Origin: an uncultured Candidatus Saccharibacteria bacterium
GTDB taxonomy: Bacteria; Patescibacteriota; Minisyncoccia; UBA6257; Colwellbacteraceae
NCBI GenBank assembly: GCA_964643135.1
Contig: CAZXPC010000001.1
Coordinates: forward strand, 39,726 to 103,725
DNA: 64,000 bases
Reading direction: 5' to 3'
Made by a program: the position numbers and the translations under genes. The notes beneath the pieces are model-generated. The model searched no databases and was not told the origin of the DNA. It saw nothing but the letters and a program-made list of their open reading frames with translations. Positions 6,528 to 52,722 of this stretch are shown here, in pieces. Position 1 is the first letter of the stretch. Each line of letters starts with the position of its first letter.

Positions 6528-8681
6528 CTAGTGTCCGCCGTATTTTTTCTTGAGAGCGGAGATTTCTTCCGGCGTTAAGTTGTTGTAGACGGCGAGCCAA
6601 TCGCTCGCGATTTGATGAGCGGCGATACTTAGATCGACTCGGCCGTCGCAGACCTGGCCTTGCAAATAAATTTCGACTAAGTCTTTCTCGTGAAAGCCCG
6701 GCACGGGCGCCGCGGCCTCAGGAAATAAGTTCGCGATATCATTTGATCCGCCCAAGGCCAACGGCACAATGTGGTCAACTTCATAAGCGCCCTTGGCCGG
6801 CGGGTAAGGTAAGTCATATTCCGCAAAAACTTGCTTGCGCAATTTGGGGGAGACGTTGCGAACGGACTTGGTGTAGCCTTTGACGCAGATTTCTTCGACT
6901 GTGGCGTTGGGAAAAATCGCTCCGGGCGAACAATCCGAATTGGGTAGAGGGCCTTTTATTTCGCACGAAGCAGTTTTGATCCGCGTCAAGATTGGTGGGA
7001 GGGGCGCGGCGGCTGATGAACTGGCGAGGAGCGATTGCATATTTTCTTTCGCGGCCTTATTTGACTCTGAGTGGCGGAAAGATATGAGGCCGGCCGCGGA
7101 GATTGTGAGCAGAAATGCGACCAAGGGAATTAGAAAGGGGATTTTGTTCTTCGATTGCCTAAAAAGATAATAGAAAAATAGCCCATAAATCAGGATAACC
7201 AGGACAAATGGAAATTGGGGGATGGTAAGCGATGCGAACGGCAAGCGAGAGAAAAGATTGATGATGCCAAGTTCATAGCGAAGCAAGACATAAGATATTT
7301 TGCCGGGAACGAAGGCGACGATATTCGAAATAATGCCCGCGAAGCCGGTTGCGAAACCAAAGATCATGGTGAAAGGAATGAATGGCAGCACTAATAGGTT
7401 GGCTGGGATAGTAACGAGCGACCAAGTTCCCATCTTCCAAATAATGAAGGGCAGAATAAAGATATAGACCGCAATTGTGAGAGCAGCGGATTCGCGGAGC
7501 CACGTCCATTTAATTACTTGGAGCTTTTCCTCGACTCGGGGAGTGAAAAACAATACGGCAATCGTGGCCAAAAAAGAGAGTTCGAAAGAGACATCAAAAG
7601 CCAGAATAAACGGGTTAAGGAAGATCATAATGACGCCGGCGCAAATTAGGGCCCGCCCCGCGTCATAAGTGCGGCCGGTCAGTCGGGCGATGAGGACTAG
7701 CAAGGCCATAATGCCGGCGCGAATTGAAGTCTGCGCTGCGCCGGTCATCAGAATATATGAAAGAACGCCCAGCATGGCTATGATGCCGCCGAAAACGGCC
7801 GGCAGGAAACCGAACAGCTTTAAAATCATGTTAGAGACCAGGCTGACATGATAACCGGCGATAGTTACCAAGTAGACTAAGCCGGTTGAGGTCAAAGCTA
7901 TTTTCTCATCTGCGCTAAACGAGGCGCGGTCGCCTAAAATTAATCCCCGCATGAATCCCGATTCGGGTTCTGATATTGATGAATCTAAATTGGCGACTAG
8001 CCGGCCGCGGACTAAGAAAAGCCACCGTTTCAGGAAATTTCCGCCGCCGGTCGAAATGACTGTGATTTTTGGGTTTCGGACGACGTAGAAGATGCCGTCT
8101 TTTTTCAGATAATTTATGTAGTCGAAAGTTGCGCCCTGGTCAGTCGAGAAGTTCGCAGGTTTCTCTAATTTACCGGTAAAGGAAATGTTGTCGCCGTATT
8201 TATATTCCTGATCCCCTTTAGAGATGAGAAGAATATTGGTGTTTGTTCCTTGTCGCTCGGTCCCGACAACAATTTCAGTGCCGCTGTCTTTAACGATAGG
8301 CATATCTTTAATAAGTCCGGACAGAGTAACCGAGCTGCCCGTTTGATTTTCAAAAACAACGGGAGCCGGTTTATCAATAATCTCGAACCTAATGATCCCG
8401 AGCGAAAAAGCGAAAATAAAAAAAGATATTAATTTCATCCATTTTCCAATTTTCTCAAGGTCAGACCTCGAGAAAATGAAGAATAGGCCGATTACTAGCG
8501 AGATTGTCCCAAGGAAAGCGGCGGCGTAAAAGTCGAAAGGCAGAAATGACTTCCAAAGTATGCCCAGGACGAAACCCAGACACACCGAATTAAAGACCAT
8601 GTTTCTAGTCATGCTTATCTTTTTGGCTTGTATTTTTAGCCTGGAAAAATCATAATACGGGCGCGATGAAGAAAAAATCAA
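6528..8681 (-). CDS. comEC: ComEC/Rec2-family DNA internalization channel protein with C-terminal HNH-like nuclease motif (no metallo-beta-lactamase domain)
   Basis: N-terminal DUF4131-like region. Competence domain motif LILGDRASFSADEKIALTSTGLVYLVTIAGYHVSLV and multiple TM helices. C-terminal ~150 aa contain YEVDHIVPLALGGSNDIANL (HNH signature). The usual HxHxDH beta-lactamase motif is not seen. Confidence 0.75.
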   Translation of the reverse strand: MIFSSSRPYYDFSRLKIQAKKISMTRNMVFNSVCLGFVLGILWKSFLPFDFYAAAFLGTISLVIGLFFIFSRSDLEKIGKWMKLISFFIFAFSLGIIRFEIIDKPAPVVFENQTGSSVTLSGLIKDMPIVKDSGTEIVVGTERQGTNTNILLISKGDQEYKYGDNISFTGKLEKPANFSTDQGATFDYINYLKKDGIFYVVRNPKITVISTGGGNFLKRWLFLVRGRLVANLDSSISEPESGFMRGLILGDRASFSADEKIALTSTGLVYLVTIAGYHVSLVSNMILKLFGFLPAVFGGIIAMLGVLSYILMTGAAQTSIRAGIMALLVLIARLTGRTYDAGRALICAGVIMIFLNPFILAFDVSFELSFLATIAVLFFTPRVEEKLQVIKWTWLRESAALTIAVYIFILPFIIWKMGTWSLVTIPANLLVLPFIPFTMIFGFATGFAGIISNIVAFVPGKISYVLLRYELGIINLFSRLPFASLTIPQFPFVLVILIYGLFFYYLFRQSKNKIPFLIPLVAFLLTISAAGLISFRHSESNKAAKENMQSLLASSSAAAPLPPILTRIKTASCEIKGPLPNSDCSPGAIFPNATVEEICVKGYTKSVRNVSPKLRKQVFAEYDLPYPPAKGAYEVDHIVPLALGGSNDIANLFPEAAAPVPGFHEKDLVEIYLQGQVCDGRVDLSIAAHQIASDWLAVYNNLTPEEISALKKKYGGH

Positions 8682-9712
8682 AGAAAACTATATTTGTGGG
8701 CCTCTCGGGCGGGGTAGATTCCTCGGTGGCGGCCTATCTGCTCTTGAAACAGGGCTACCGTGTCGTGGGTGTTCATATGCGTTGCTGGAATGAGGGTGAC
8801 TGTGATGTCGAAGAAGCTGAATATGCCCGCCGCGTGGCTGAGCACTTAGGCATACCGTTCTACCTTTTCGATCTAGAAAAGGAATATAAAAAGGCGGTTG
8901 TCGACTACATGATTAAGGGCTACAAAGAGGGAATCACGCCAAACCCGGACGTTATGTGTAACCGCGAAATTAAGTTCGGTGTCTTTTTGAAGAAAGCGAT
9001 CGAACTCGGTGCCGACTATATGGCAACCGGCCATTATGTGAAGCGGATTGGCAATAAACTCGCGATCGCCAAAGATCTTTCAAAAGACCAATCATATTTC
9101 TTATGGACTTTGACTGAAGCGCAGATCAAGCGTTCGCTTTTCCCAATTGGGGACTGTCAGAAGAAAGATGTGCGTAAAATTGCTAAGAGAATTGGCTTGC
9201 CGACTTGGAACAAGAAAGATTCGCAGGGTATTTGCTTTATTGGCCAGGTTTCGATTAAAGATTTTTTAAAACGCTATATTAAAGGCAAGCTAGGCAATAT
9301 TGTTGATGAAAAAGGGAATGTATTGGGCCATCACGAGGGCGCACAGTTTTATACCATCGGCCAGAGACATGGCTTAAATATCGGCGGCAGCGACTTGCCG
9401 TATTATATAAAAGCCAAGAATATCAAAAAGAATTTGCTGATTGTGGCTAAGGGTGAAGCCAATCCAGCGTTGTACCGCAAAGAAATTAAACTAGCGCAGG
9501 TAAACTTGAACCAAGTCGTTCCGAAATCTGGACTTAAAGTCATGACGCGGGTTCGCTACCGCCAGCCGTTGTTTACGGCTCGTTTCTATCAGCTATCAGC
9601 TAAAAGCTATCAGCTTATCTTTGACGTCAGTCAAAAGTTTATTGCCCCGGGCCAATCGGCCGTAATATACGACAAAAAGGGAATTATGCTCGGCGGGGGA
9701 GCCATTCTGTAA
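8666..9712 (+). CDS. mnmA: tRNA-specific 2-thiouridylase
   Basis: PP-loop SGGVDSSVAAYLL. C(101)-containing NPDVMCN motif. MnmA-typical length (348 aa). The start overlaps the divergent comEC start. Confidence 0.9.
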   Translation: MKKKSKKTIFVGLSGGVDSSVAAYLLLKQGYRVVGVHMRCWNEGDCDVEEAEYARRVAEHLGIPFYLFDLEKEYKKAVVDYMIKGYKEGITPNPDVMCNREIKFGVFLKKAIELGADYMATGHYVKRIGNKLAIAKDLSKDQSYFLWTLTEAQIKRSLFPIGDCQKKDVRKIAKRIGLPTWNKKDSQGICFIGQVSIKDFLKRYIKGKLGNIVDEKGNVLGHHEGAQFYTIGQRHGLNIGGSDLPYYIKAKNIKKNLLIVAKGEANPALYRKEIKLAQVNLNQVVPKSGLKVMTRVRYRQPLFTARFYQLSAKSYQLIFDVSQKFIAPGQSAVIYDKKGIMLGGGAIL

Positions 9713-9857
9713 GAGGTGTCACCTCGTCAGTTACCGAATAACCACCCAAGGGGAAGCCTTGGCAGCATATCTTGACGGAGTAGTGTTGCTGTGTTACGAT
9801 GGCTCCACGCTAAGAAAGGGAGTAAATCCCCTAAATTGGCGGTAGGATTGACCCACT

Positions 9858-10499
9858 ATGAAGATCAGATCAGTTGCGCTGACGGCTCTGTTGGCGCTGA
9901 CGATGACGACGCTCATCTGGCCCGCGAACTTGGCGAGCGGCGAAGGCAACTCGACGGCTGGCCAGACGCATACAGGCCACATGAGTGGCACGAACGTGAT
10001 GACTGACCTGCAGCTGCAGGCGATGAACGAAGCCAGACTCGCTACGATCCAGAAGCCCAGCTCGTCTGATTCGGCTCAGGGAGTGCCCGTGGCCGATCTG
10101 CGGAAGGCAACTCAGCAGGACACCTGCGGATCGAAGATCAACCAGCCTGACGATCGGCTACCCCAGGGAGCTGGCCTCGTGAGTAGCAGTAAGGGCTACA
10201 AGGCGGGCGAGCGGACCGCGTGGATGACGATTCCCGAAGGGATGAATCTCTATGCTACGGCTCTCGACAAGCCGTTCTGGATGTTCAGCCGCTACAGCGA
10301 GGAGAGCGTTCTTCCAAACGGCGGACGCAGCTACCAAGACGGCTTCCAGTACAGCCCATGCCATGGTTGGTCCTGGCAGTGGGTTGCGGCCGGCTGGACT
10401 CACCAGATCTACCTGCAGGCTGCCGAGAACAACACGAACTTCTATGTCGTTCTCGTCCCTGATCAACAAGGTACGTGCAGTAACGATTGCGGTGGCTGA
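9858..10499 (+). CDS. GC-rich island gene G1: secreted protein of unknown function (signal peptide, several Cys)
   Basis: N-terminal MKIRSVALTALLALTMTTLIWPANLASG signal peptide. Codons are strongly GC3-biased (cgc/gcg/ctg/acg), unlike the backbone. Own promoter-like TTGACG-17-TACGAT at about 9770-9798. Hairpin plus CTCTTTTTT terminator at about 10536-10578. Confidence 0.6.
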   Translation: MKIRSVALTALLALTMTTLIWPANLASGEGNSTAGQTHTGHMSGTNVMTDLQLQAMNEARLATIQKPSSSDSAQGVPVADLRKATQQDTCGSKINQPDDRLPQGAGLVSSSKGYKAGERTAWMTIPEGMNLYATALDKPFWMFSRYSEESVLPNGGRSYQDGFQYSPCHGWSWQWVAAGWTHQIYLQAAENNTNFYVVLVPDQQGTCSNDCGG

Positions 10500-10711
10500 A
10501 GCCAACAACAGTTCTTCGAAGGACTAAGTCCTTCACCCCTATGACGGTTTCCACCAACATGGAAATCTCAAGGGGCTCTTTTTTATTCAGGGCTTGACAG
10601 TATATAAAAGATTGTGTTAACATATCGCCGTTCTTAGAACCTTAAGAAAGACATATTCTGGCTGGCGAAAGGGAGGTAATTACAAGCTTTATCTTACTTT
10701 CGCCCGTCAGG

Positions 10712-11344
10712 ATGGGCATGTGGTATGTTATGAGGACTACGTCGATCGCGATCGCATTCGGAGCGCTCATGCTGCTCGCTGTTATGCCGATGAACACCGC
10801 CAGCGCCGGTATCTCCGCACCGTACGGGGATTGCAAGGTCAGCGACCTGCTGATCTGCGCCGCAGACAGCACGTACAATTGTCCCAGCAACCCGCCCCAG
10901 CAACCCGACAGAAGCGGCGGGATGTATGGCAGGACACAGACACCTGCCAGCGTGCTGATCGGAAGCCAGAACATCCCTACGATCAACAACTGGAACTACG
11001 ACGAATTTCCTGGCATGGTCATCCATATGTTCACGGTCATGTCGACGTGTGGGCACGCAGCTACGGTCTGCACCGTCCCGCCGGCGGGGTATGAAACTGC
11101 CCAGGGAGGCTATTGTATGGGAGTCACGAGGTCGTGGTTCCAGCAAGGCAGTCCAGATTCCTTTTGGTTCCAGGCGCCGACGTCCACTTACTGCCACGCT
11201 TATTACAATGACTGCGTGCCGAGTGAAGCGGTGACGGTTCGGCTCGATGCGAACCTTGAGACGCCTCTTCCAGCAGTCTTGGTCGTAGCTGGAAACCTGA
11301 ATCAGTACTACTACAGCTGCGGCTGCGGTAATGCGGCTCCTTGA
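10712..11344 (+). CDS. GC-rich island gene G2: secreted cysteine-rich protein of unknown function
   Basis: Signal peptide MRTTSIAIAFGALMLLAVMPMNTASA. 14 Cys in mature part. GC3-rich codons. Terminator hairpin plus GGGCTCTTTTTT at about 11383-11424. Confidence 0.6.
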   Translation: MGMWYVMRTTSIAIAFGALMLLAVMPMNTASAGISAPYGDCKVSDLLICAADSTYNCPSNPPQQPDRSGGMYGRTQTPASVLIGSQNIPTINNWNYDEFPGMVIHMFTVMSTCGHAATVCTVPPAGYETAQGGYCMGVTRSWFQQGSPDSFWFQAPTSTYCHAYYNDCVPSEAVTVRLDANLETPLPAVLVVAGNLNQYYYSCGCGNAAP

Positions 11345-11495
11345 AGCTCGCACCCAAAAGTCCTGTGAAATATCAGGCACCCCGTCCTAGCGAAACCTAT
11401 CTACATGGGAATCGCTAGGCGGGCTCTTTTTTACTCAAAAATAAATTTCTTGCCAAAAGCTCTGTACGGGTGTAACCATTATAGAGAGGATAAGG

Positions 11496-11738
11496 ATGCC
11501 GGAACCCGCTCAAGAGCTGAAGAGGCTCATCCAAGATCTTGCCAAGGAACTTGGCCCGGAATACAGGATCATTCTGGTGACGCGCAAGGGGGTCCGTCGA
11601 TTCCTCTTCCTTGCGTTCCTAGTCATCTTTGCGGCTTTTGTGCTCGGGCACGTGGCCGGGATGACGCTTGCCCAGAAGGTTTGTGACGGCGGCTGGCTCG
11701 GCGACTTCGCGTACGGTAATTGTCCGCGGAAGCCTTAG
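11496..11738 (+). CDS. GC-rich island gene G3: small single-pass membrane protein
   Basis: 80 aa. GAGAGGA Shine-Dalgarno-like sequence 6-7 nt upstream. Hydrophobic helix FLFLAFLVIFAAFVLGHVAG. Hairpin plus GGGCCTTTTTT terminator at about 11768-11800. Confidence 0.45.
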   Translation: MPEPAQELKRLIQDLAKELGPEYRIILVTRKGVRRFLFLAFLVIFAAFVLGHVAGMTLAQKVCDGGWLGDFAYGNCPRKP

Positions 11739-11857
11739 CGCGGTCGCAAGCCACTCAGGGCACTGCCCCCCCGCTCCAAGATCTGGAACGGGCCTTTTTT
11801 ATTTTTGCTGCGCGGTTTTGATACTTTTGAGTTTTTCATATAATATGGAACTTACTT

Positions 11858-13189
11858 ATGAGAATATTAACGAGGGATCTTATTACTAAGACTGGCGAGA
11901 CGGTTAAAGTTGCCGGCTGGGTCAATGCGCGGCGCGACCAAGGCAAGATTATTTTTATTGATCTTCGGGACAGAAGAGGCATTGTTCAGGTGGTGATGAC
12001 ACCGAAAAATGAGGCGGTTTATACTATTGCCAAAGAATTGCGCGGCGAGTGGGTGATCGAAATCGTGGGCGTGGTTAAAGAACGCCCGGCCGCGATGGTC
12101 AATCCGAACATTGCAACCGGTAAAATAGAAATTCAGGTGAGCGAGCTAAAAGTTTTAGCTAAGGCCGAGCCTTTGCCGTTTGATTTACACGAGCGAGAGT
12201 TAAACCTCGAGCTCACAACTCAGCTCGACCACCGCGCGCTGCTTTTGCGCCACCCGCGCTTACAGGCAATTTTTAAAGTCCAGGCGGTGATTATCGATTC
12301 ATTTAGAGAATTTTTGAAATCGCAAGAATTTGTGGAGTTCCAGGCGCCGTGCATTACGCCGGCCACAGCCGAGGGGGGAGCAGAAGTTTTCCAGATCAAC
12401 TATTTCGATAAAAAGGCATATCTGACGCAATCGCCGCAGCTATATAAACAGATCGTGATGACCACTTTTGAAAGAGTTTTTTCGGTCAATAAAGTTTTCC
12501 GGGCTGAGCCATCGGCTACAACCAGGCACTTGACCGAGATTGTCTCGCTCGACGCCGAGATGGGCTTTATCGAGTCGTGGCAAGATGTGCGTGACATGTC
12601 TGAAGCGACTGTGAGATATGTTTTAAAACAAGTTGGCGAAAAATGTGCCGAAGAACTTAAAATAGTGGGCGCGACACTGCCGGTTATGATAGATAAGACG
12701 CCGACATATTCCTTAACCGAGGCGCAGGAGAAGATCTTCGCCGCAACCGGCAAAGATGTTCGCGGTGAGAAGGATCTGAATCCGGAAGATGAGCGCGCCA
12801 TTTGCGAAATAGTTAAGAAAGAAACCGGCTCCGATTTTGTTTATGTTTATGGCTACCCGACCAAGAAAAAGCCATTTTATGTCTACCCGAATCCGGATAA
12901 GCCGGAGTTCAATGAAGGCATGGACTTACTCTGCCGCGGCGTGGAGTGGCTGTCGGGCGGGCGGCGCGTCAACGATTACGAACAGCTCATGAGGCATGTT
13001 AAAGAGTGGGGCATGGACCCCGCTAAGATCGAGATGTTTTTAGAAGCGTTTCGGTACGGCGCGCCGCCTGAAGGCGGGTTCGCCCTGGGCGCGGAGCGGA
13101 TGACGATGCAAATCTTGGAACTCGCGAACGTGCGTGAAGCCGCGATGTTCCCGCGCGACATGAACAGAATTGATAAATCTCTGAATTGA
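11858..13189 (+). CDS. aspS: Aspartate--tRNA ligase, short archaeal/eukaryotic-type class IIb (possibly non-discriminating)
   Basis: 443 aa. N-terminal OB-fold. Motif 2 VFRAEPSATTRHLTEIVSLDAEMGF resembles archaeal-type AspRS more than AsnRS. QSPQLYKQ flipping loop. Motif 3 GGFALGAERMTM. Confidence 0.75.
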   Translation: MRILTRDLITKTGETVKVAGWVNARRDQGKIIFIDLRDRRGIVQVVMTPKNEAVYTIAKELRGEWVIEIVGVVKERPAAMVNPNIATGKIEIQVSELKVLAKAEPLPFDLHERELNLELTTQLDHRALLLRHPRLQAIFKVQAVIIDSFREFLKSQEFVEFQAPCITPATAEGGAEVFQINYFDKKAYLTQSPQLYKQIVMTTFERVFSVNKVFRAEPSATTRHLTEIVSLDAEMGFIESWQDVRDMSEATVRYVLKQVGEKCAEELKIVGATLPVMIDKTPTYSLTEAQEKIFAATGKDVRGEKDLNPEDERAICEIVKKETGSDFVYVYGYPTKKKPFYVYPNPDKPEFNEGMDLLCRGVEWLSGGRRVNDYEQLMRHVKEWGMDPAKIEMFLEAFRYGAPPEGGFALGAERMTMQILELANVREAAMFPRDMNRIDKSLN

Positions 13190-13974: not shown

Positions 13975-15144
13975 ATGAGAGTTAGTTATAGAATATTAGG
14001 GATGTTCAAGAAATTTCTGCCTCAAATTGCGATTGCCTTGGTCGGCGCGGGAGCGCTCGGCGGGTTTTTTGTGTGGAAGAATATTTCTTTGCCGGATTCA
14101 GCTTCGGGCGTCGCCTTGCCCGTGCTTGACTACAGTCATATGCCGATTCTTTCGATCGTCAAGAACGAAGATGTTCTGAGGCCGGCTATAAAACAGCTGG
14201 GCACCAAAGCTCTGATGGCAAAATTAGTAGCGGAATCGAACGGCGGCTCGGCTTTCGATTGTCACCAGGAAGCTCACGCGATCGGGCGGCTGGCTTACGA
14301 GATTTATAAACAATTGGCTTTCGGCGACTGCGATGCTTCGTGCCACTCGGGGTGTTACCACGGCGCGATGGAGCGATTCTTGAACGAAAAAGGGACGGCC
14401 GACCTTGCCGCCAATATCGACTCCGTCTGCAGCTCCTTTAAGACCAGTTTCAGCAATTTTGAGTGTCTGCATGGCGTCGGCCACGGACTCTTAGCCTACG
14501 AAGATTATGATATGCCGTTTGCGATCCAAGAGTGCCAGAAGTTGAAAGATGCTTTCAGCACCGACTCATGTTACGGCGGCATGTTTATGGAAAATATTTT
14601 AACTGCTCAAGGCCTGGGCGCCAGTCAGAAGGTTTTTCATGCCACGAAGTGGGCCAATAAAACCGATCCGCTCTACCCGTGCGATAAGTTGGATCAGACT
14701 AATTACGATTTGCAGTATCAGTGCTATGAGATGCAGACAAGTTGGATGCTCACGATCTACGGTTATGATTTTAAGCCGGTGAAGGCTGAGTGCTTAAAGG
14801 CGCCGCAGAATATGATTCCGGTTTGTTTCAAGAGTTTCGGCCGGGACGCCGCGGGTAATTCCTTGCGCAATCCGGTGACCATGAAATCAACGTGCGGCAT
14901 GGTGCCGGCGGGAGATTATTATGACCAATGCGTAATCGGCGCGGTCAATGTCGTAGTGGATTTTTGGGGGCCGGCTCTGAAGGGTCAGGCGGCTGATTTT
15001 TGTAAAATATTAACCGGTGAAGGGAAAGACACATGTTATTCTACTCTGGCGGGGAGGTTGCCCGGCTTGTTCTCTTCTCATGACGACCAGGCGGCTGCTT
15101 GCGCTACATTTGAGGATAAATATCAAAAATATTGTAAAATTTAA
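13975..15144 (+). CDS. Membrane-anchored cysteine/histidine-rich protein of unknown function
   Basis: N-terminal TM helix. About 24 Cys. Duplicated C.HxxxHxxxxLAYE motif (DCHQEAHAIGRLAYE / ECLHGVGHGLLAYE) suggests metal binding. A 2-nt gap to the next ORF suggests an operon. Confidence 0.6.
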   Translation: MRVSYRILGMFKKFLPQIAIALVGAGALGGFFVWKNISLPDSASGVALPVLDYSHMPILSIVKNEDVLRPAIKQLGTKALMAKLVAESNGGSAFDCHQEAHAIGRLAYEIYKQLAFGDCDASCHSGCYHGAMERFLNEKGTADLAANIDSVCSSFKTSFSNFECLHGVGHGLLAYEDYDMPFAIQECQKLKDAFSTDSCYGGMFMENILTAQGLGASQKVFHATKWANKTDPLYPCDKLDQTNYDLQYQCYEMQTSWMLTIYGYDFKPVKAECLKAPQNMIPVCFKSFGRDAAGNSLRNPVTMKSTCGMVPAGDYYDQCVIGAVNVVVDFWGPALKGQAADFCKILTGEGKDTCYSTLAGRLPGLFSSHDDQAAACATFEDKYQKYCKI

Positions 15145-15146
15145 GA

Positions 15147-15557
15147 ATGAAAGCAAATTTCAAAATCAGCGCGCCGGTTATCTTAGGCCTAATAGTTCTG
15201 TCGGGGATCGGCGTTTATGTTTTTTTCGGCCAGCAATTATTTTCCAATGACTTGGCGTCGGCCAATAGCCAAAGCGCCGCAGTGGTGGTTACTATGAATA
15301 ACGATGCATATAGCTCGACTGATATCACTGTTAAGCAGGGCCAAGCGGTTAAGTTCGTAAATGAGTCAAACGAAGATTATTGGCCGGCTTCAAACATTCA
15401 CCCCGACCACACGATTTACCCGGAGTTCGACCCGAGGAGGCCGGTCCATCCCGGTGAGAGCTGGTCATTTAAATTCGACAAAATTGGCTCATGGCGCTTC
15501 CACGATCACTTACACTATCCAGATATCACGGGCGTCATCAACGTTGAGCCGAATTAG
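15147..15557 (+). CDS. Membrane-anchored cupredoxin-like (plastocyanin/amicyanin-fold) protein
   Basis: N-terminal TM helix. C-terminal H..H...H/H..P pattern (HPDHTIYPEFD ... WRFHDHLHYPDITGVINV) reminiscent of type-1 copper sites. Size is 136 aa. Confidence 0.5.
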   Translation: MKANFKISAPVILGLIVLSGIGVYVFFGQQLFSNDLASANSQSAAVVVTMNNDAYSSTDITVKQGQAVKFVNESNEDYWPASNIHPDHTIYPEFDPRRPVHPGESWSFKFDKIGSWRFHDHLHYPDITGVINVEPN

Positions 15558-16144
15558 GCTAATTTCTTCGAGACAACGCTCCAGTCGACGGCCTTCATAA
15601 AAGATTCGATGTAGTCGGCGCGTTTTAGGCCGTAGTCAGTTATGTAGGCGTGTTCAAAAACATCGATTGGCAGAAGTATCTGGCATCCGCCCAAGTGGCC
15701 TAAGTCGTGTTCGTTAATCCAAACATTGAACAATCGGTTAGCATCGGGGTCGTGGTAGAGAATCGCCCAGCCGATGCCGCGCATAGCAGCGGTTGTTTTG
15801 TAGTCGGTTTCCCAAGCTTCATATGAGCCAAAATCTTCAATGATTTTTTTATAGAGCGGAGATGAACTATCGATTGCCATGCCGCCGTTTTTCATCGCGC
15901 CAAAATAGTGCTCGTGGATGCGCATGCCGTTAAATTCCCAGCCGAAGCGGCGCTTTAGTTCGTTATATTCCGGTGACGACGGCGTACCCGCTTTAAGATC
16001 TTTGGATATAGCAGCCAGTTTCTCGAGCAGTGTGTTCACGTTTTTAACGTAGCCCTGATAAAGCGTGAAATGGTTTTTTAGTGCGGCGTCGCTAAAACCG
16101 GGAGTTCCTATTAATGAGTCGTAATTTTTTGGTGAGTATTGCAT
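15554..16144 (-). CDS. Superoxide dismutase, Fe/Mn family
   Basis: HHTKHH-equivalent N-terminal region (KNHFTLYQGYV). C-terminal DVFEHAYITDY matches the Fe/Mn-SOD D-x-WEHAYY signature. 196 aa. Confidence 0.9.
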   Translation of the reverse strand: MQYSPKNYDSLIGTPGFSDAALKNHFTLYQGYVKNVNTLLEKLAAISKDLKAGTPSSPEYNELKRRFGWEFNGMRIHEHYFGAMKNGGMAIDSSSPLYKKIIEDFGSYEAWETDYKTTAAMRGIGWAILYHDPDANRLFNVWINEHDLGHLGGCQILLPIDVFEHAYITDYGLKRADYIESFMKAVDWSVVSKKLA

Positions 16145-17539: not shown

Positions 17540-19300
17540 ATGTTCACGACCGAGCATAAGACCTGTCAGAACTGCCGCCGGTCGTTTGACATAGATGGGG
17601 AAGACTTTGCGTTCTACGAAAAAATGAAAGTTCCGCCGCCAACCTGGTGCCCGGAGTGCCGCATGATCCGGCGCATGGCTTGGTGGAACGAGCGCAATCT
17701 TTTTAAGAAAAAAGATATTGACGGGAAAGTTATTTTCTCGGCTTACCCAGAAGAATCATATTTTAAGATCATCGATCGCGACGAGTGGTGGAAAGACAGC
17801 TTTGATGCTATGCAGTACGGCCGGGATTATGATTTTTCAAAGCCGTTTTTCCCGCAGCTGAAAAAACTGGCGGGCGAGGTGCCGTTTCCTTCGCGAGCTG
17901 GAACCAACTTGGTCAATTGCGACTACTGTAACAATTCCAACAATTCCAAGGATTGTTACATGTGTTTTAATGTCGATGAATGTGAAGATTGCATGTATAT
18001 GGTTTTTGCGAAGAAAAACAAGGACGCGATCGATGGTATTAGCGTTTACCAATGCGAATCTTGCTATGAAACCACGCTCTCGGGCATTAGCTATAAAAAT
18101 AATTTTGCATATCAATCGCCATATTGCCGCGATTCTTATTTTTTAAACTATTCGGATAATTGCAACAATTGTTTCGGTTCAGTAAATTTGCGGCACAAAG
18201 AATATTACATTTGGAACAAGCAGTATTCCAAAGAAGAATACTTTAAAAAGATAGAAGAATTTAATTTGGGTTCCCATGCTGCTCTGGAGAGCCTGAAGAA
18301 TAAATCAAAAGATTTTTTCTTGCGCTTTCCGTATCCATATATAAAAGTGTGGCACAACAGCGGAGTGATTACCGGGGATAATATATTCGAGTCAAAAAAT
18401 ATTAGAGATTCGTTTGCAATCGAAGAGGCTGAGAACCTGCGTTACTGCCAAAGCGCCGTCTTCGGCATCAGGGATTGTTACGACTATACGAATTTCGGCA
18501 ATAACGCCGAACTGATCTACGAATCGGTTGAATGCGGCGAATCGATCAGCAATTTGAAATTTTGTTTCGGCTGCTGGTCCAATTCGCGAAACTTGGAATA
18601 TTGTTTGAATTGCCATTCTTCGGAAGACTGCTTCGGCTGTGTCGGCCTGAAGAAAGCCAAGTACTGCATCTTTAACAAGCAGTATTCAAAGGAAGATTAC
18701 GAGAAACTTCGGGCGCGGATAATTGAGCAAATGAACAAAAACCCCTATCGGGACGCGAAGGGCCGGGTTTATAAATATGGGGAATTTATGCCGCCCGAAA
18801 TGGCGCCTTATGCGGCTAACGAGAGTGTTGTTGTCGACCGAAATCAGTTTGACCAGGATAAGGCGCTGTCTTATGGGCTTCGTTGGCGAGAAGTTGATCC
18901 GGTTGAATATAAGACAACCATTAATGCGGCCGATATGGCGGACCACATTAAAGATGTGTCTGATGGCGTAACTCAAGAACTAATTAGCTGTTTGAATTGC
19001 AAGCGGGCCTATCGAATTCTCCCGAAGGAATTGGATTTCTATCGGAGGTTGAACTTGCCCTTGCCGCGGCGTTGCCCGAATTGTCGTTACGAAGAGCGAA
19101 ACAAACAAAGAAATTACCTAAAACTCTATCCCGGCACGTGCCAGTGCGCCGGCGCGGCGTCAGGGAATAAAGTTTATAAGAATGCCGCCAGACACTTTCA
19201 TGGCGAAGAACCATGCCCGAATAAATTCGAGACAGCTCACGACCCAAAGGCGCAGAGGATTGTTTATTGCTTGGAATGCTACCATAAAGAATTGTTATAG
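17540..19300 (+). CDS. Cysteine-rich CxxC-repeat protein of unknown function (paralog B of 384-2141)
   Basis: 586 aa. Same architecture and motif order as 384-2141 (TCQNCRRSF, WCPECRMIRRMAWWNER, NCNNCFGSVNLRHKEYYIWNKQYSKEEY, YCLNCHSSEDCFGCVGLKKAKYCIFNKQYSKEDY, LDFYRRLNLPLPRRCPNCR, VYCLECYHKELL). Confidence 0.6.
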   Translation: MFTTEHKTCQNCRRSFDIDGEDFAFYEKMKVPPPTWCPECRMIRRMAWWNERNLFKKKDIDGKVIFSAYPEESYFKIIDRDEWWKDSFDAMQYGRDYDFSKPFFPQLKKLAGEVPFPSRAGTNLVNCDYCNNSNNSKDCYMCFNVDECEDCMYMVFAKKNKDAIDGISVYQCESCYETTLSGISYKNNFAYQSPYCRDSYFLNYSDNCNNCFGSVNLRHKEYYIWNKQYSKEEYFKKIEEFNLGSHAALESLKNKSKDFFLRFPYPYIKVWHNSGVITGDNIFESKNIRDSFAIEEAENLRYCQSAVFGIRDCYDYTNFGNNAELIYESVECGESISNLKFCFGCWSNSRNLEYCLNCHSSEDCFGCVGLKKAKYCIFNKQYSKEDYEKLRARIIEQMNKNPYRDAKGRVYKYGEFMPPEMAPYAANESVVVDRNQFDQDKALSYGLRWREVDPVEYKTTINAADMADHIKDVSDGVTQELISCLNCKRAYRILPKELDFYRRLNLPLPRRCPNCRYEERNKQRNYLKLYPGTCQCAGAASGNKVYKNAARHFHGEEPCPNKFETAHDPKAQRIVYCLECYHKELL

Positions 19301-19334: not shown

Positions 19335-20420
19335 ATGAAACTCCGTGAATACGAGGGTAAGGAACTTTTTAGGAAATATGGCATTGAGCCTCCCAAAGGA
19401 GAGCTTATTAATTCAACTTCCTCAGCGGTTTTAAAAGGGCCGGTGGTTTTGAAAGCCCAGGTTCTGTCGGGCGACCGCAAAAAGCACGGTGGAATTATAA
19501 TAACTAAGGAGAGTGATATTGGAAATAATATTGCGAAGCTTTTGGGTCGCGAGATTAACGGCGAAGTGGTGGAAAAGATATTAGTTGAGGAACTTATTGA
19601 TATTGCCGCCGAATATTATGCTTCGATTAGTTACGACACGGTTACGCGCGGGCCGGTTTTGGCGCTTAATGTTACTGGCGGGTCCGGCATCGAAAAGGCA
19701 GAAACATTTCCTTTGGATATCCTTGAAGCGACTATTCCAGAAAAATACCTAGAAACTATTCTTATTAAAACTGGTTTTCCAGCCAGTGATATCGCTGAAC
19801 TTTCCAAAATTATTCAAAACCTGTGGCAATTATTTATTAAAGAATATGCATTGCTCGCCGAGATTAACCCGATTTTTAAAACGAAAAGCGGCCACTTTGT
19901 CGCCGGGGATGCCAAAGTTATCCTAGATGATGAAAAAATCAATCCAAACGAACGAAGGTTTGTCTCAATGGGCGGGGATATTGCGATCTTGGCTTCCGGC
20001 GGCGGAGCGTCGATGCTTAATATGGACGCGCTTTTACACTATGGCGGCAAGCCTGCTAACTACACTGAATATTCTGGGAACCCGAAAGGTGAAGTAGTAA
20101 AAGAGCTCACAAAAAGGGTTCTGAGTCAGCCCGGCATAAATGGCTTGTGGGTTATCGGCGGTACGGCTAATTTTACAGATGTCTTTGAGACGCTTTCAGG
20201 GTTTGTGGAAGGTCTGGAGTCGCTTCCAGAGAAGCCTAAATACCCGATCGTAATTCGCCGTGATGGCCCGCGACAGAAAGAAGCGGCAGAGATGCTCAAG
20301 ATTTTCGCAGCCGAGAAGGGCTATGACATGCATATCTATGACCGAGAAATGCCGATGGAACAAAGCGCCAAGCTGATGGTTCAACTCGCAAATGAGTTCG
20401 CTCGTAAATCCAAAATCTAA
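19335..20420 (+). CDS. sucC: Succinyl-CoA synthetase beta-subunit-like ATP-grasp protein (SucC/AclB/CcsA family)
   Basis: MKLREYEGKELFRKYGI N-terminus typical of SucC. ATP-grasp region. 361 aa, slightly short. Confidence 0.75.
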   Translation: MKLREYEGKELFRKYGIEPPKGELINSTSSAVLKGPVVLKAQVLSGDRKKHGGIIITKESDIGNNIAKLLGREINGEVVEKILVEELIDIAAEYYASISYDTVTRGPVLALNVTGGSGIEKAETFPLDILEATIPEKYLETILIKTGFPASDIAELSKIIQNLWQLFIKEYALLAEINPIFKTKSGHFVAGDAKVILDDEKINPNERRFVSMGGDIAILASGGGASMLNMDALLHYGGKPANYTEYSGNPKGEVVKELTKRVLSQPGINGLWVIGGTANFTDVFETLSGFVEGLESLPEKPKYPIVIRRDGPRQKEAAEMLKIFAAEKGYDMHIYDREMPMEQSAKLMVQLANEFARKSKI

Positions 20421-20519
20421 AACCCAAATGACAAATCAAGCTCTAAACCCAAAATCCAAATATTTGTCATTAAATCATTTGAATTTGATTAGTCATTTAG
20501 ATTTTGTCATTTAATCACC

Positions 20520-21452: not shown

Positions 21453-21459
21453 TTTACAC

Positions 21460-22774: not shown

Positions 22775-23060
22775 GATGCTCAGAGAATAACGCCCATCCC
22801 AGCGATTTTTACCGAATAAAAATAATAATTAAATTTATGAAGAGGATTATATTAATAATTGTTCTGGTGGTAGTAGTCGGTGCGATTGGTTGGTATCTCT
22901 GGACCGTGATGAATCCCAATCATCTTCCGCCAGCATTCCCGAATTAACTTTCGAAGCATTCCTTAAAGAAGGCGAGTGTATATCTGCCCAAGACGTTGGA
23001 GGATATGCGAGCCATCTTAAGAAGTCTGATTTAGGCCCATAAATATTGGGTTTTTGGCTC

Positions 23061-23090
23061 TTGACAGAGTTGGGTTATTAATGGTATAAT
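23061..23090 (+). promoter_or_regulatory. Sigma-70-type promoter TTGACA-N18-TATAAT driving island gene G4
   Basis: Consensus -35 and perfect -10. GGAG sequence follows 8 nt before ATG 23111. Confidence 0.55.
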
Positions 23091-23110
23091 TGACCTTGGA
23101 GAATCCAAAC

Positions 23111-23401
23111 ATGACAGCCGTACCTTCCACCGCAGATGCGAACGTCGTCGGCCGAAAGTTCCTCGAGAAAGTCCTCACCGCCAGAGCGAGGGAAATGCTC
23201 GGCGGCACCTATGATGTGCCAGAAACTGCACCGGGGCATCCTGTTGGCCAGATCGCGGGAGCGGTCGATAAGCTCTGCTCATCGCTCGGCGAAGAGGACA
23301 AGCGCGTCGTCTCAGGCCTTCTGGAGGATATGGTCCTTGCCGAGGTCAAAGCACGCTTCGCCACGTACAATGCTGGACTTGGCAAGACCGGCAAGAAGTA
23401 G
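23111..23401 (+). CDS. GC-rich island gene G4: small soluble protein of unknown function
   Basis: 96 aa from ATG 23111 (the ORF-track start at 23090 is TTG). GC3-rich codons. Hairpin plus GGGCCTTTTTTA terminator at about 23440-23470. Confidence 0.5.
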   Translation: MTAVPSTADANVVGRKFLEKVLTARAREMLGGTYDVPETAPGHPVGQIAGAVDKLCSSLGEEDKRVVSGLLEDMVLAEVKARFATYNAGLGKTGKK

Positions 23402-23484
23402 CATGGTTCGCACTCCCGCCTAGGCACATTTTGTGCCACCCGAACGTTTCGACGTCTCGGGCCTTTTTTATTTCAAAGAAATAT

Positions 23485-25927: not shown

Positions 25928-26016
25928 CCAATAACAAATAACCAATAACTCATAACAAATAACAGGAATGCATTTGTATCCCGTTATAAGTCATCAGTTA
26001 TAAGTAATAAGTTAAA
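25928..26016 (+). repeat. AATAAC/GTTAT imperfect-palindrome element copy 1 (subtype A, AATGCATT core) between rpsL and rpsG
   Basis: Left arm ccaataacaaataaccaataactcataacaaataacag. Centre gaatgcatttgtatccc. Right arm gttataagtcatcagttataagtaataagttaa, ending 4 nt before ATG. Confidence 0.7.
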
Positions 26017-26592: not shown

Positions 26593-26594
26593 AT

Positions 26595-28870: not shown

Positions 28871-28898
28871 TTGACGAATTATTTTAGATCAGTATACT
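28871..28898 (+). promoter_or_regulatory. Promoter-like TTGACG-N16-TATACT upstream of island gene G5, followed by a 150-nt leader with an 8-bp inverted repeat AATTTGAG/CTCAAATT (about 28918-28942)
   Basis: Hexamers and inverted repeat seen in sequence. Confidence 0.4.
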
Positions 28899-29056
28899 AG
28901 CAAGTCTGTTCTTTATAAATTTGAGTTACTAAACCTCAAATTCTGCGGTGGACAGAAGGAGATTTCTTCTAAGAAGCCTCTTCCTGCCCCCGCGGAATTT
29001 GTGTGTTTCGAGCCTCACGGCTTGAGATACGCGGATGATGCGGTTCCCAGTCAGCA

Positions 29057-29842
29057 ATGAAAGGGGACGATGGACATATGGGGATGTCCACCGAAAAACG
29101 ATGGAGTCGATACAACATGTCGCCTGCGACCCAGACCACCACGACGCCGATCCGCAAGACCGTTGACGTCAGCGCCGAAGCGATCCGCGAGGACGCGATC
29201 AGCCAGTTCCGCGCGACCCAGAAGCAGCCGCAGTTCAAGGCCATCATCGGCCAAGTCCTGCCGGCCGGGACGCTCGAGAACATGAGCCGCTCGATCCAGC
29301 AGTCGCGCGCCAGCACGCTCACGGGCATCGTCGGCGTTCAGGAGGGCAACCTCCCGATCGTACTGCACCTGCCCAGCCACGTGCTCTCGCTCTGCGACCG
29401 CCTCGCGATCGCGAACGGCGGCAAGCTCGAGAACGTGCCGACCTGGATCAACCAGGTCCAGCGCCGCACCCCCTGGGCCATGATGCCCGAGGGGCAGCTC
29501 CAGGGAACGACCGACTTCGACCTCCAGGGCGTGCCGACCGTCAACATCACGACGGAGATCCGCACCTGCCAGGCCGAGAAGCGCAGCTTCCCGACGACCG
29601 AGCAGCTCGTCGACGCGATCAACGCCGCGCGGGCCAAGGCGCAGCACGACGACGAGGAGTTCGTCCTCGTCGGCAAGACGTTCCTCGCGTTCGGCGACAT
29701 CGCCGGCCAGGGCTACACGCCGACCATCACGGTCGGCGAGGACACCCAGACGCTCGGCCGCGTGCCGTTCGTCGAAGGCGAGGAGCTCGAAGACGAGGCC
29801 GTGCTCGCGAACTACGACACGGTCTACGGCTTCTCCAGCTGA
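29057..29842 (+). CDS. GC-rich island gene G5: soluble protein of unknown function
   Basis: 261 aa. Roughly 65% GC with about 90% GC3 (cgc/gcg/atc/ctc/gag/ggc codons). AAGGGG SD-like sequence upstream. Perfect 11-bp stem GGACCTAGATT/AATCTAGGTCC plus T6 terminator at about 29868-29930. Antisense ORFs 28969-29328 and 29051-29899 are shadow ORFs. Confidence 0.6.
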   Translation: MKGDDGHMGMSTEKRWSRYNMSPATQTTTTPIRKTVDVSAEAIREDAISQFRATQKQPQFKAIIGQVLPAGTLENMSRSIQQSRASTLTGIVGVQEGNLPIVLHLPSHVLSLCDRLAIANGGKLENVPTWINQVQRRTPWAMMPEGQLQGTTDFDLQGVPTVNITTEIRTCQAEKRSFPTTEQLVDAINAARAKAQHDDEEFVLVGKTFLAFGDIAGQGYTPTITVGEDTQTLGRVPFVEGEELEDEAVLANYDTVYGFSS

Positions 29843-30006
29843 ACCCGCCCCCGTGTGCGTCCCAATCGGACCTAGATTAAAGCAATAAGAGTCTTGCACT
29901 CTGAGCTAACAATCTAGGTCCACTTTTTTACTCAAAAATATTGACTTAGATTTTCGCTGGTATAATATTATGTCGCGGGAGACATTCCGCTGTGAGGTAC
30001 GCAAAA

Positions 30007-30225
30007 ATGAAGACAGGAATTGTATTGGCACTGGGAGCAATGCTCGCGCTCACGTTCGTGACCATGGCCATTGCCCAGCCCGCTCAGGCTGAAGCAGGGA
30101 GAGTGTGCTATGTTGGTCCCACATGGATAGCTGACCAGCAGTACACGCAGGGCTGGGTCGCATGCTGTCCGGACGAGAGCGACCCTACCACCTGTGGTTA
30201 CGGCGGCTACTGGGTCAAGACCTAG
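30007..30225 (+). CDS. GC-rich island gene G6: small secreted cysteine-rich peptide (72-aa precursor, about 44-aa mature)
   Basis: Start at ATG 30007 (the ORF-track start at 29992 is GTG). Signal peptide MKTGIVLALGAMLALTFVTMAIAQPAQA/EAG. Mature part has 4 Cys (VCYVGP...ACCPDESDPTTCGYGGYWVKT). GAGGT SD 9 nt upstream. Hairpin plus T6 after stop. Confidence 0.5.
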   Translation: MKTGIVLALGAMLALTFVTMAIAQPAQAEAGRVCYVGPTWIADQQYTQGWVACCPDESDPTTCGYGGYWVKT

Positions 30226-30568
30226 TAGATCCAAAGGTCCACAATATCGACACGGTGTCTTTTTTCCTCTCACAACGCCCGAATGAAAGCTCTTAGAGCA
30301 ATTAAGTCGGGTTTATTTTTATCCGGCAATTTCTAAACGGCAAACGGCAACTCATTTTATAGGCGAGCGAGTTACTTTAGATCGGACTTCGAGCGCTGAT
30401 CTTTGTATTTCGGGGTGCCCCGTTGCGAAGCAATGGGGAGCGCAGCGACGGATGGCGAAGCGAAAACCGCAACGCGAGTTTGAGCGAGAGACTATCCGGT
30501 AAGCGAGCAGTTATCCACACCCATAACAATTTAAAGATGTTTTGGACAAGTTTTTTATCTTTCCACAG

Positions 30569-30596
30569 TTGACAGAGAGACGCACTCTAATATAGA
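30569..30596 (+). promoter_or_regulatory. Promoter-like TTGACA-N16-TATAGA about 210 nt upstream of tuf
   Basis: Consensus -35. Sits at the end of a 570-bp non-coding gap. Confidence 0.35.
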
Positions 30597-33312: not shown

Positions 33313-33321
33313 TATCAAGAA

Positions 33322-52007: not shown

Positions 52008-52155
52008 GTTCTGGTCTTTTAGTTGGTTTTTATTATACCACGTTGACCTTTATTTAATTGAGGGAATAATACCACGTGAGCCAATATCTTGTCAAGGGCT
52101 GGTTATAGAGATAAAAAAAAGAGCGCCTAGGGGTTTGGTTGACCCACAGAGACGC

Positions 52156-52722
52156 TTAGTTGGCTGCCGCATCCTGGCTGCCGAGGATGCCGATCTTATC
52201 GGGATCGCGCACTCGCCGGCCGGGCGTAACGACCGCCACGACTCCGCTTTCCCGGTTCATGCAGATCGCTCCGTTCTGGACCACGTCAACCATGACTCCG
52301 TCGGGGCATTTCTCATGGGTGAAATCCGAGAGAATGATGCCTTCAGGAGTGTTGATGTGGTCGAGCCTGCCTACGGTCCATTCCTGAGCGTTGGTTTGCT
52401 TCTTCAGATCAGGCTCAGCGCCTCTCGCGAGACACATGTAGGTGACGATGGTCATCTTGCGCTTGCCGTCATCGGTAGTTACGACGTACCTTTGACCGAA
52501 CTCGTAGAGGGGGAAGACGATGAGTCCGGTTTGGCAGAGAACTCCGTTCACAACTGCGTCGCGCAGGCTGCCTTCGTCGCCGGATTCTGAGCGGCCTCCC
52601 GGCAAGAATCCCTTGCCTTCCTTGTCGAGCGTCAAGATAAGCCCGATGTTGGCATCATCATCCTTGCGAGCGGGAATGTAGGCAAGGCAGGCGAAGTAAG
52701 ATTCGGTTTGGTTAATCTTCAT
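52156..52722 (-). CDS. GC-rich island gene G7: hypothetical protein (possible degenerate Nudix-like G..E...R..E motif)
   Basis: 188 aa. GC3-rich codons in a visibly GC-rich block. Strong GGAGGT SD 7 nt upstream of ATG. Downstream (minus strand) hairpin plus GGCGCTCTTTTTTTT terminator at about 52100-52150. The plus-strand ORF 51982-52590 is a shadow. Confidence 0.5.
   Translation of the reverse strand: MKINQTESYFACLAYIPARKDDDANIGLILTLDKEGKGFLPGGRSESGDEGSLRDAVVNGVLCQTGLIVFPLYEFGQRYVVTTDDGKRKMTIVTYMCLARGAEPDLKKQTNAQEWTVGRLDHINTPEGIILSDFTHEKCPDGVMVDVVQNGAICMNRESGVVAVVTPGRRVRDPDKIGILGSQDAAAN

Follow-up and report, generated by a model that had tools for sequence, protein, structure and literature searches.

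Why do three small genes of atypical composition stand one behind the other between mnmA and aspS in the small genome of a member of the Patescibacteria (CPR)? This stretch, referred to as island A, lies within a 64,000-nt piece of genomic DNA (the window), and an initial annotation read it as one member of a dispersed family of mobile cassettes. The most likely reading of island A, we conclude, is a small and ordinary piece of DNA gained by horizontal transfer rather than a mobile cassette of a new type. More specifically, and with confidence only a little above doubt, we propose that it is an islet whose three genes came in together, in a single block, from an unsampled donor of higher GC, and that it encodes exported, probably disulfide-bonded envelope proteins. 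The features of island A, its flanks, and the other islets are collected in Table 1.

TABLE 1. Features of island A, of its flanking genes, and of the other islets, in positions of the window.
Feature	Position	Strand	Description
mnmA (tRNA 2-thiouridylase)	8666..9712	+	Left backbone flank; Pfam tRNA_Me_trans, E = 3.5e-72; GC3 0.52
G1 promoter, sigma-70-like	9772..9800	+	TTGACG-17-TACGAT, TG before the -10; 9/12 matches, pattern match only
G1	9858..10499	+	213-aa orphan, predicted Sec-type signal peptide, 4 Cys in mature part; GC3 0.74
G1 intrinsic terminator (putative)	10536..10584	+	Nested hairpin, then T6 run and A; hairpin/T-run scan agrees
G2 promoter, sigma-70-like	10594..10623	+	TTGACA-18-TAACAT, TG before the -10; 10/12 matches (consensus scan)
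G2	10712..11344	+	210-aa orphan, predicted signal peptide ending TASA/G, 10 Cys; GC3 0.71
G2 intrinsic terminator (putative)	11381..11432	+	Hairpin and T6; 3' half like that of the G1 terminator
G3 candidate promoter	11451..11479	+	TTGCCA-17-TAACCA; read by eye, under the consensus-scan threshold
G3	11496..11738	+	80-aa single-pass membrane protein, 2 Cys in short C-terminal tail; GC3 0.70
G3 intrinsic terminator (putative)	11770..11800	+	Hairpin CCCGCTCCA...TGGAACGGG, then CC and T6 run
aspS	11858..13189	+	Right backbone flank; Pfam tRNA-synt_2, E = 8.8e-79; own promoter 11818-11846
Islet I2	23061..23469	+	Promoter TTGACA-18-TATAAT (12/12), 96-aa cytosolic orphan (23111-23401), terminator
Islet I3	28871..30320	+	Between fusA and tuf; I3a and I3b, each with promoter and terminator
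I3a	29057-29842	+	261-aa cytosolic orphan; GC3 0.93
I3b	29992-30225	+	Predicted signal peptide and 44-aa mature peptide with 4 Cys
Islet I4	52113..52722	-	188-aa cytosolic orphan (52156-52722) and terminator; between mreB and an unknown gene

Composition of Island A

Island A had been described as a jump to roughly 60% GC over a backbone with AT-rich codon preferences. GC in 300-nt windows, GC3 per gene, and a tetranucleotide comparison confirmed that it is atypical, the GC3 of its genes (0.70-0.74) lying about three standard deviations (z ~3) above that of the 59 backbone genes (0.535 ± 0.061, maximum 0.67). The figure of 60% holds for the ORFs alone (0.57-0.62), with the spacers at 0.42-0.51 and the entire island at 0.56, and the third codon positions of the backbone show no AT bias (GC3 0.53). 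The spacers themselves are ~0.10 richer in GC than 21 backbone spacers (0.362 ± 0.081). Seven 300-nt windows exceed the mean GC by over 2 SD; four of them are the islands of the initial annotation, and only these four center on compositionally atypical small genes.

At fourfold sites, island A is unlike the backbone (chi-square p = 3e-5), with G at 0.38 vs. 0.25 and a moderate shift in GC (0.69 vs. 0.58). The profiles of G1, G2, and G3 are not distinguishable from each other (G1 vs. G2, p = 0.74), which fits a single origin. Relatives with fourfold sites like those of island A exist in Patescibacteria, e.g., one locus (L057) with A/C/G/T at 0.12/0.37/0.34/0.17. By tetranucleotide L1 distance, island A (0.439 vs. 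0.222 ± 0.031, z = 7.1) is the top 2,086-nt stretch of the window, its dinucleotide delta* is also raised (148 vs. 58 ± 25, z = 3.6), and none of 200 backbone windows matched it in either measure. The codon log-likelihood z of the island genes is merely -1.2 to -2.1. The high GC2 and low Lys+Glu content of G1 and G2 recur in native exported proteins encoded at 55596-59995, whose GC3 is normal, so that GC3 is the sole anomalous trait of G1 and G2 once these native proteins are compared.

Genes, Promoters, and Terminators

The signal-like N-terminal segments and multiple Cys noted earlier for G1 and G2 were borne out by direct reading. G1 begins with MKIR, followed by the hydrophobic core SVALTALLALTMTTLIW and then ...LASG/E (the slash marks the predicted cleavage site), and G2 begins with MR, followed by the core TTSIAIAFGALMLLAVM and then ...TASA/G. 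Signal peptides were assigned by eye and with a hydropathy heuristic, based on an N-terminal basic region, a hydrophobic core of 12-20 residues, and a small-x-small cleavage motif; both proteins display all three and are thus predicted to carry Sec signal peptides. The Cys counts read from the sequence are even in all three proteins (4 in G1, 10 in G2, and 2 in G3). G2 has alternative in-frame starts at 10718 and 10730; the antisense ORF 10694-11380 that covers it, though longer, has GC1 0.70 and GC3 0.50 and was rejected as a shadow frame. G3 stands as it was annotated, with a basic cluster (RKGVRR) ahead of its transmembrane segment; its ATG has a good Shine-Dalgarno sequence (GAGAGGA) at a distance of 5 nt, and the gene calls of one Logan assembly include it. 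Paralogy of G1 and G2 was considered and rejected (BLASTP E = 0.21; Smith-Waterman with shuffles, p = 0.12).

The claim that the units are individually equipped with promoter and terminator stands in so far as promoter-like sites precede G1 and G2, and a GC-rich hairpin followed by a U-tract (T6 in the DNA) lies downstream of the stop codon of G1, G2, and G3; the grammar is generic, however, and backbone genes carry the same sigma-70 promoter and intrinsic-terminator pattern. The 3' regions of G1 and G2 have fold energies of -29.6 kcal/mol (z = -4.7) and -31.6 kcal/mol (z = -4.2) respectively, and the G3 terminator hairpin alone has -10.4 kcal/mol. Local alignment of the G1 and G2 terminators gives 29 identities in 35 columns (shuffle p ~0.02 without the T-run). 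A loop sequence shared between two terminators had been reported, and the motifs ACATGGRAATC and GGGCTCTTTTTTA do occur exactly in both, and in these two terminators of a single island alone. A shared 5' leader was also considered, as GAAAGGGAG(G)TAAT stands 44-45 nt ahead of both the G1 and G2 starts, and was dismissed, there being no broader conservation and only chance-level repeats.

Homologs and Locus

Profile searches and structure prediction assigned no family to G1 or G2. Both gave zero matches in Pfam, PHROGs, NCBIfam, PADLOC, and PDB sequences, and a defense-system reading was rejected. Their single-sequence AlphaFold2 models had pLDDT of only 36 and 33 and were unusable, hence no fold search was made. 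G1, G2, and I3a retrieved themselves alone in word-indexed searches of 5.8e9 protein clusters, and a full phmmer run with G1 against 1.84e9 representatives likewise brought back the query only. No match was found in phages and plasmids (tblastn), in plasmids with the island as query (blastn), or in scans of viral contigs. Family searches with G3 gave chance-level sub-threshold matches alone (E ~0.03), and those with I3b and I4 sub-threshold noise only. The lineage is so sparsely sampled that this orphan status says little: clustering at 90% identity leaves the AspRS and MnmA of the organism as singletons, and when S12 and S10 were looked up by exact match, in order to reach near relatives informative on the fusA-tuf site, only the same two samples came back.

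The initial annotation had placed the insertion within conserved housekeeping synteny. We compared 80 genome and 80 metagenome loci around aspS and found otherwise: a trpS-sized gene lies immediately upstream of aspS in most of 69 related loci examined (it encodes TrpRS in L003), and mnmA or ndk occurs within 10 kb of aspS in 0 of the 160. The nearest relative, with 74% AspRS identity, has unlike synteny on both sides, and G1-G3 are present in none of the 160 loci. As most of the loci examined have the trpS-sized gene before aspS, island A appears to sit at a rearrangement junction. A search for a trpS relic within island A yielded noise only.

Other Islets in the Window

Three further islets had been grouped with island A as small secreted Cys-rich proteins. 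This description does not extend to I2, I3a, and I4, which lack a signal peptide. The mechanical start of the I2 ORF is a TTG at 23090; I2 has GC3 0.67, and C occupies 0.52 of its fourfold sites; I4 has GC3 0.70, its codons likewise C-ending. Three significantly different synonymous-site signatures are thus present: G-ending in island A, C-ending in I2 and I4, and C plus G with almost no T in I3a. Island A and the three islets are all compositionally foreign-looking, stand-alone units, and in this respect repeated acquisition, as proposed earlier, is consistent with what we found.

In a nearby low-GC islet, insertion has left a footprint in the form of a duplicated, relic 3' end of the flanking gene, which indicates that DNA insertion does occur in this genome. 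The sole tRNA gene of the window (Pro) is at 24334, and integration at a tRNA was discarded as a reading of island A.

Competing Explanations

The composition jump might itself reflect an assembly chimera or contamination, in which a high-GC contig fragment was joined into a CPR contig, a possibility that the initial annotation had raised and doubted. Its doubt was justified: at all junctions covered (mnmA-G1, G3-aspS, fusA-I3a, and the two ends of I4), contigs of two independent Logan assemblies from different runs (SRR8931233 and SRR8931234) show 100% identity to the window, which makes chimerism very unlikely. No repeats able to mislead an assembler were found at the junctions, and island A is just 2.1 kb, set between host-type promoters and terminators, so that we give such an artifact practically no credence. 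Scarcely more credible is the model in which a shared mobile mechanism (integron-like, MITE-like, or of a related kind) disseminated all four islands as one cassette family; it can be considered largely refuted. Every islet is a short promoter-terminator unit with raised GC3, and the G1 and G2 terminators have a motif in common; however, this motif is confined to one island, the promoter/terminator grammar is that of backbone genes as well, the codon signatures are of three types, and we found no similarity among the island proteins and, by alignment, no homology among the 5' regions of the islands. Further, no integrase, transposase, or recombinase was found by Pfam on the larger ORFs of the window or in the Pfam lists of the Logan contigs, direct repeats flanking island A are at chance level only, no tRNA is adjacent, and the 3' hairpins of island A are T-run terminators, with no attC-like repeats found. 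Integron cassettes are normally promoterless, and an array of them was rejected given the promoters before G1 and G2 and the lack of attC and integrase. A DGR target was rejected likewise, as no repeat pair of at least 60 nt touches 9500-12100 and no RT domain was found by Pfam in neighboring genes.

A weightier competitor, which we nonetheless judge unlikely, is that G1-G3 are native, vertically inherited, fast-evolving envelope genes specific to the lineage, with a GC3 offset set by a local mutational or selective regime (e.g., expression level or mRNA structure). Without close relatives in any collection, orphans are expected among fast-evolving exported proteins, and the amino-acid bias resembling that of native exported proteins, the host-type promoters, terminators, and Shine-Dalgarno sequences, the missing mobility hallmarks, and the only modest codon log-likelihood offset all agree with native genes. 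On the other hand, GC3 is backbone-like (0.44-0.58) in each of the eight genes checked that encode native exported or membrane proteins (13975-15144 and 55596-59995), so export does not account for the GC3 shift, and the highly expressed tuf, fusA, and ribosomal-protein genes reach just 0.47-0.61. The GC shift of the spacers, the extreme tetranucleotide distance, and the position at a synteny break also speak against native genes. Compatible with horizontal acquisition, though improbable, is a secreted toxin or bacteriocin-like module, in which G1 and/or G2 would be antagonistic or host-directed and G3, in the membrane, would confer immunity or act as a helper. The gene order would suit it, with a small single-pass membrane protein after two exported proteins that contain Cys, as would the Cys-containing peptide of I3b, and genes of such modules are typically accessory, orphan, and islet-borne; but no toxin, bacteriocin, immunity, or defense family was matched, no dedicated transporter or processing gene is nearby, and each gene has a separate promoter and terminator, whereas toxin-immunity pairs are usually co-transcribed. 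A further reading, which we hold to be equally doubtful, is that G1-G3 and the other GC3-rich islets represent effectors or interface proteins captured not long ago, either taken from GC-rich partners of the episymbiont or directed at them; if so, the differing codon signatures would record successive hosts or neighbors, and the newest capture would be I3a, which lies essentially unameliorated between fusA and tuf.

Proposed Origin and Function

Since no donor, homolog, or empty site was found, the case for horizontal acquisition is drawn from composition. We suggest that three lineage-specific accessory genes (~2.1 kb) most likely arrived together in a single block from an unsampled donor of higher GC, for which another Patescibacterium is a plausible candidate. 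They would now occupy a rearrangement junction, peculiar to this lineage, on the upstream side of aspS. Transfers into Patescibacteria are reported to come mostly from other Patescibacteria, in whose genomes hundreds of genomic islands, reaching up to 13% of genome length, have been described (PMC12455944), and the remark in the initial annotation that such an island is unexpected in a reduced genome was therefore overstated.

Each gene would be a separate transcription unit, running from a sigma-70-type promoter through the ORF to an intrinsic terminator, and the island terminators may additionally shield aspS from read-through. G1 and G2 would leave through Sec with cleavage of their signal peptides, and the mature proteins (~19 kDa) are probably disulfide-bonded and extracytoplasmic. 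G3 would be a small N-in/C-out membrane protein with its Cys pair outside. For proteins of this kind in a CPR episymbiont, a role at the envelope or the partner-cell interface seems likeliest.

If the islet genes are acquired envelope proteins, they would be candidate determinants of the interaction between Paceibacteria and their partner cells, of which almost nothing is known. Acquisition would also mean, given distinct codon signatures within 64 kb, that a streamlined genome still takes up and insulates single foreign genes, and that such uptake reaches even the fusA-tuf stretch.

Comparison with Known Systems

Like integron cassettes, the units of island A are short, single-gene, and arranged head to tail, with an imperfect inverted repeat after the ORF. 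Unlike them, their repeats are GC-stem/T-run terminators without the R''/L''-L'/R' organization of attC, the units have their own promoters and are non-homologous save for the G1 and G2 terminator halves, and neither intI nor attI is present. Sec-dependent bacteriocin and toxin modules similarly combine exported Cys proteins with a small single-pass membrane protein in an accessory islet, but island A lacks a family match, co-transcription, and transporter or maturation genes, and mature G1 and G2 (~185 aa) exceed typical class II peptides. The native CPR surface proteins of the window are like G1-G3 in having a signal peptide or anchor and Cys residues, in their low Lys+Glu and high GC2, and in matching no family of Pfam; their genes, however, stand in multi-gene runs at ordinary GC3, whereas G1-G3 are GC3-rich and individually insulated.

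Set beside the horizontally acquired genomic islands and islets of Patescibacteria (e.g., those in 125 aquifer genomes; PMC12455944), island A stands apart in having no integrase, tRNA, direct repeats, or detected donor, and in that its genes are all complete orphans, each with its own promoter and terminator; at 2.1 kb and three genes it is also far smaller than a classical island. It resembles them in being an atypical segment in a small CPR genome, with accessory genes that have no assigned function and that were not found in the 160 related aspS loci, and a donor that is probably another Patescibacterium or an unsampled neighbor. Horizontal transfer and genomic islands are already described in this group, and island A adds an example to a known phenomenon.

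Organization and composition of island A

The window has a GC content of 47.7% and originates from an uncultured member of the Paceibacteria/Parcubacteria (CPR), with the top matches of its AspRS, at no more than 74% identity, in Paceibacterota, Kaiserbacteria, Adlerbacteria, and similar MAGs. Between mnmA and aspS lies island A, a GC3-rich stretch of ~2.1 kb with three ORFs (G1, G2, and G3). Promoter-like sites precede G1 (TTGACG-17-TACGAT) and G2 (TTGACA-18-TAACAT), a weaker candidate read by eye precedes G3 (TTGCCA-17-TAACCA), and a hairpin with a subsequent T6 run lies 3' of every ORF, with 3' region folding energies of -29.6 kcal/mol (z -4.7) for G1 and -31.6 kcal/mol (z -4.2) for G2. G1 and G2, with 4 and 10 cysteines respectively, begin with classical putative Sec signal peptides, and G3 consists of a basic cluster, a single TM segment, and a short tail carrying two cysteines.

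Coordinates (window positions) and GC3 of features
Feature	Position	Strand	GC3	Description
Cys-rich paralogues	384-2141; 17540-19300			585 and 586 aa; 28 and 34 Cys
VirD4/TrwB-like coupling-protein genes	window start; 2151-3920
mnmA	8666-9712			left flank of island A
G1	9858-10499	+	0.74	213 aa ORF between mnmA and aspS
G2	10712-11344	+	0.71	210 aa ORF between mnmA and aspS
G3	11496-11738	+	0.70	80 aa ORF between mnmA and aspS
aspS	11858-13189			right flank of island A
I2	23090-23401		0.67
fusA	26595-28694
I3a	29057-29842		0.93	261 aa
I3b	29992-30225		0.67
tuf	30809-32008
I4	52156-52722	minus	0.70
ftsW	61719-62840
Intergenic repeats	25922-26015; 26502-26593; 33309-33404; 37178-37285; 38568-38661; 40646-40746; 41087-41203

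The compositional jump described in the initial annotation is real and well delimited, although its figure of 60% GC for the whole island applies to the ORFs only (0.57-0.62; island 0.56). GC3 in the backbone is 0.535±0.061 with a maximum of 0.67 (59 genes), below all three ORFs, and spacer GC is 0.42-0.51 in island A vs. 0.362±0.081 in the backbone (21 spacers). The tetranucleotide L1 distance of island A is 0.439 (z=7.1) vs. 0.222±0.031, and its dinucleotide delta* is 148 vs. 58±25; none of the 200 backbone windows matches either value. Fourfold sites are enriched in G (0.38 vs. 0.25 in the backbone, p=3e-5), with no distinction detectable among G1, G2, and G3.

Also in this region, the two Cys-rich paralogues, which contain internal 153-aa repeats (with a weak treble-clef zinc-finger match for the first), are oriented alike, exactly 17,159 nt apart, and flank island A and its housekeeping neighbours. 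VirD4/TrwB-like coupling-protein genes occur at the window start and at 2151-3920. Downstream of ndk is a run of redox-flavoured envelope genes (13975-16144) encoding an exported protein of 389 aa (18 Cys, repeated C-H-G-x-G-H-G-like motifs, no Pfam match), a cupredoxin-like protein, and, on the opposite strand, an Fe/Mn superoxide dismutase, followed by two tandem peptide deformylase genes.

The aspS neighbourhood in relatives

The mnmA-aspS arrangement had been taken as conserved synteny, yet neither mnmA nor ndk occurs within 10 kb of aspS in any of 160 related loci. Among 69 related loci with AspRS identity of at least 64%, the gene directly 5' of aspS mostly encodes ~315-335 aa, and in one (L003) it is a TrpRS with HIGH-like and KMSKS motifs; 13 of the 16 closest loci have ftsW and/or murG within ~9 kb downstream of aspS. 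The window studied here lacks trpS, and its ftsW is 50 kb from aspS. As the relatives' arrangement is broken on both sides, island A lies at a lineage-specific rearrangement junction. Within island A, no remnant of trpS could be detected.

Other compositional islets

The initial annotation also flagged three further islets (genes I2, I3a, I3b, and I4), proposing a dispersed family of similarly built cassettes of secreted Cys-rich proteins. These are genuine GC3 outliers, each with its own promoter and/or terminator, but cassettes spread by a common mechanism are highly improbable. All-against-all comparison revealed no similarity among the island proteins, the 5' regions do not align, no tRNA was found adjoining any islet, and no recombinase or transposase domain occurs among the window proteins scanned. 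Nor is there a common codon signature: fourfold sites are G-rich in island A, C-rich in I2 and I4 (0.52), and C+G with almost no T in I3a, with p values of 1e-3 to 3e-9 for the differences from island A. The promoter/terminator grammar is no family mark, as backbone genes share TTGACA/TATAAT promoters (e.g., before rpsL, tuf, and 51516-52007) and GC-stem/T-run terminators (e.g., after fusA), and I2, I3a, and I4 lack a signal peptide. The sole common element lies in the terminators of G1 and G2, which share their 3' half (ACATGGRAATC...GGGCTCTTTTTTA); the shared loop sequence is thus present as described, but it is confined to island A and points to a local duplication there.

Besides the GC3-rich islets, the window holds a low-GC3 one (21439-22774, GC3 0.34-0.36), so its composition is patchy in both directions. 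The two ORFs of this low-GC islet (21439-23060) have N-terminal TM segments and interrupt a citryl-CoA synthetase/lyase-like cluster (19335-21452, 23578-24321). Just 5' of the I2 promoter, a relic copy of the upstream gene's C-terminus (~22960-23030, 72% nucleotide identity to 21375-21428) resembles the footprint left by an insertion or recombination event.

I3a, between fusA and tuf, is the most intriguing loose end outside the island A coordinates: T occupies just 3 of its 140 fourfold sites, all 111 related loci compared are less extreme in composition, and no collection searched yielded a homologue. The product of the adjoining I3b has a predicted signal peptide, and its 44-aa mature part contains 4 Cys. 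Upstream of tuf is an unusually long non-coding stretch of ~490 nt (30320-30808), with a strong promoter-like site (30569-30598, 11/12 matches) and no Rfam family or tRNA. An intergenic repeat family occurs between translation-apparatus genes (e.g., after rpsL and rpsG), each copy consisting of ATAAC-type pentamer runs, a spacer, and inverted runs of GTTAT; the latter end in AAGTTAA immediately ahead of the following start codon, and the copies would form long AT-rich hairpins.

Origin of island A

The best-supported reading, which we modestly favour, is that island A, whose three genes encode exported or membrane proteins, is an islet gained by horizontal transfer. Uptake probably occurred as a single block, given the common codon signature of G1-G3, the shift in spacer GC, and the duplicated terminator. 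The abrupt composition might instead reflect an assembly chimera, an explanation with next to no probability, since contigs of two independent Logan assemblies, made from different sequencing runs, match the window at 100% identity across mnmA-G1-G2-G3-aspS, and likewise at fusA-I3a and both I4 sides, with no repeats found at the junctions. The doubt already voiced about chimerism is borne out, and for the island A region it is very unlikely.

The main rival, itself rather unlikely, holds that G1-G3 are fast-evolving native envelope genes, vertically inherited with a local codon peculiarity. Native exported proteins (13975-15144, 55596-59995) resemble G1/G2 in their high GC2 and low Lys+Glu but have a GC3 of 0.44-0.58, so this bias is an exported-protein trait in this genome; in G1/G2 the anomaly is confined to a synonymous-site shift. 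Among 5.8 billion protein clusters, G1, G2, and I3a each had no match but themselves, and exhaustive phmmer of G1 against 1.84 billion representatives likewise returned only G1 itself. This orphan status weighs little, because the AspRS and MnmA of the organism are also singletons (at 90% identity) and no samples beyond the same two were found to contain its S12 protein. A toxin/immunity-like function has no support and, though possible, is considered improbable. Phage, plasmid, and viral collections gave no matches for the island genes, Pfam, PHROGs, NCBIfam, PADLOC, and PDB sequences gave no significant match for the island or islet proteins, and single-sequence AlphaFold2 models of G1 and G2 were unusable.

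For the acquired islet, the donor would be GC-richer and unsampled. The fourfold-site composition of some related Patescibacteria is close to that of island A, and most transfers into Patescibacteria have been attributed to other Patescibacteria (PMC12455944). The meaning of island A is ordinary, that of one more case of orphan genes forming a compositional islet in the genome of a CPR bacterium; hundreds of islands have been reported in such Patescibacteria genomes (PMC12455944).
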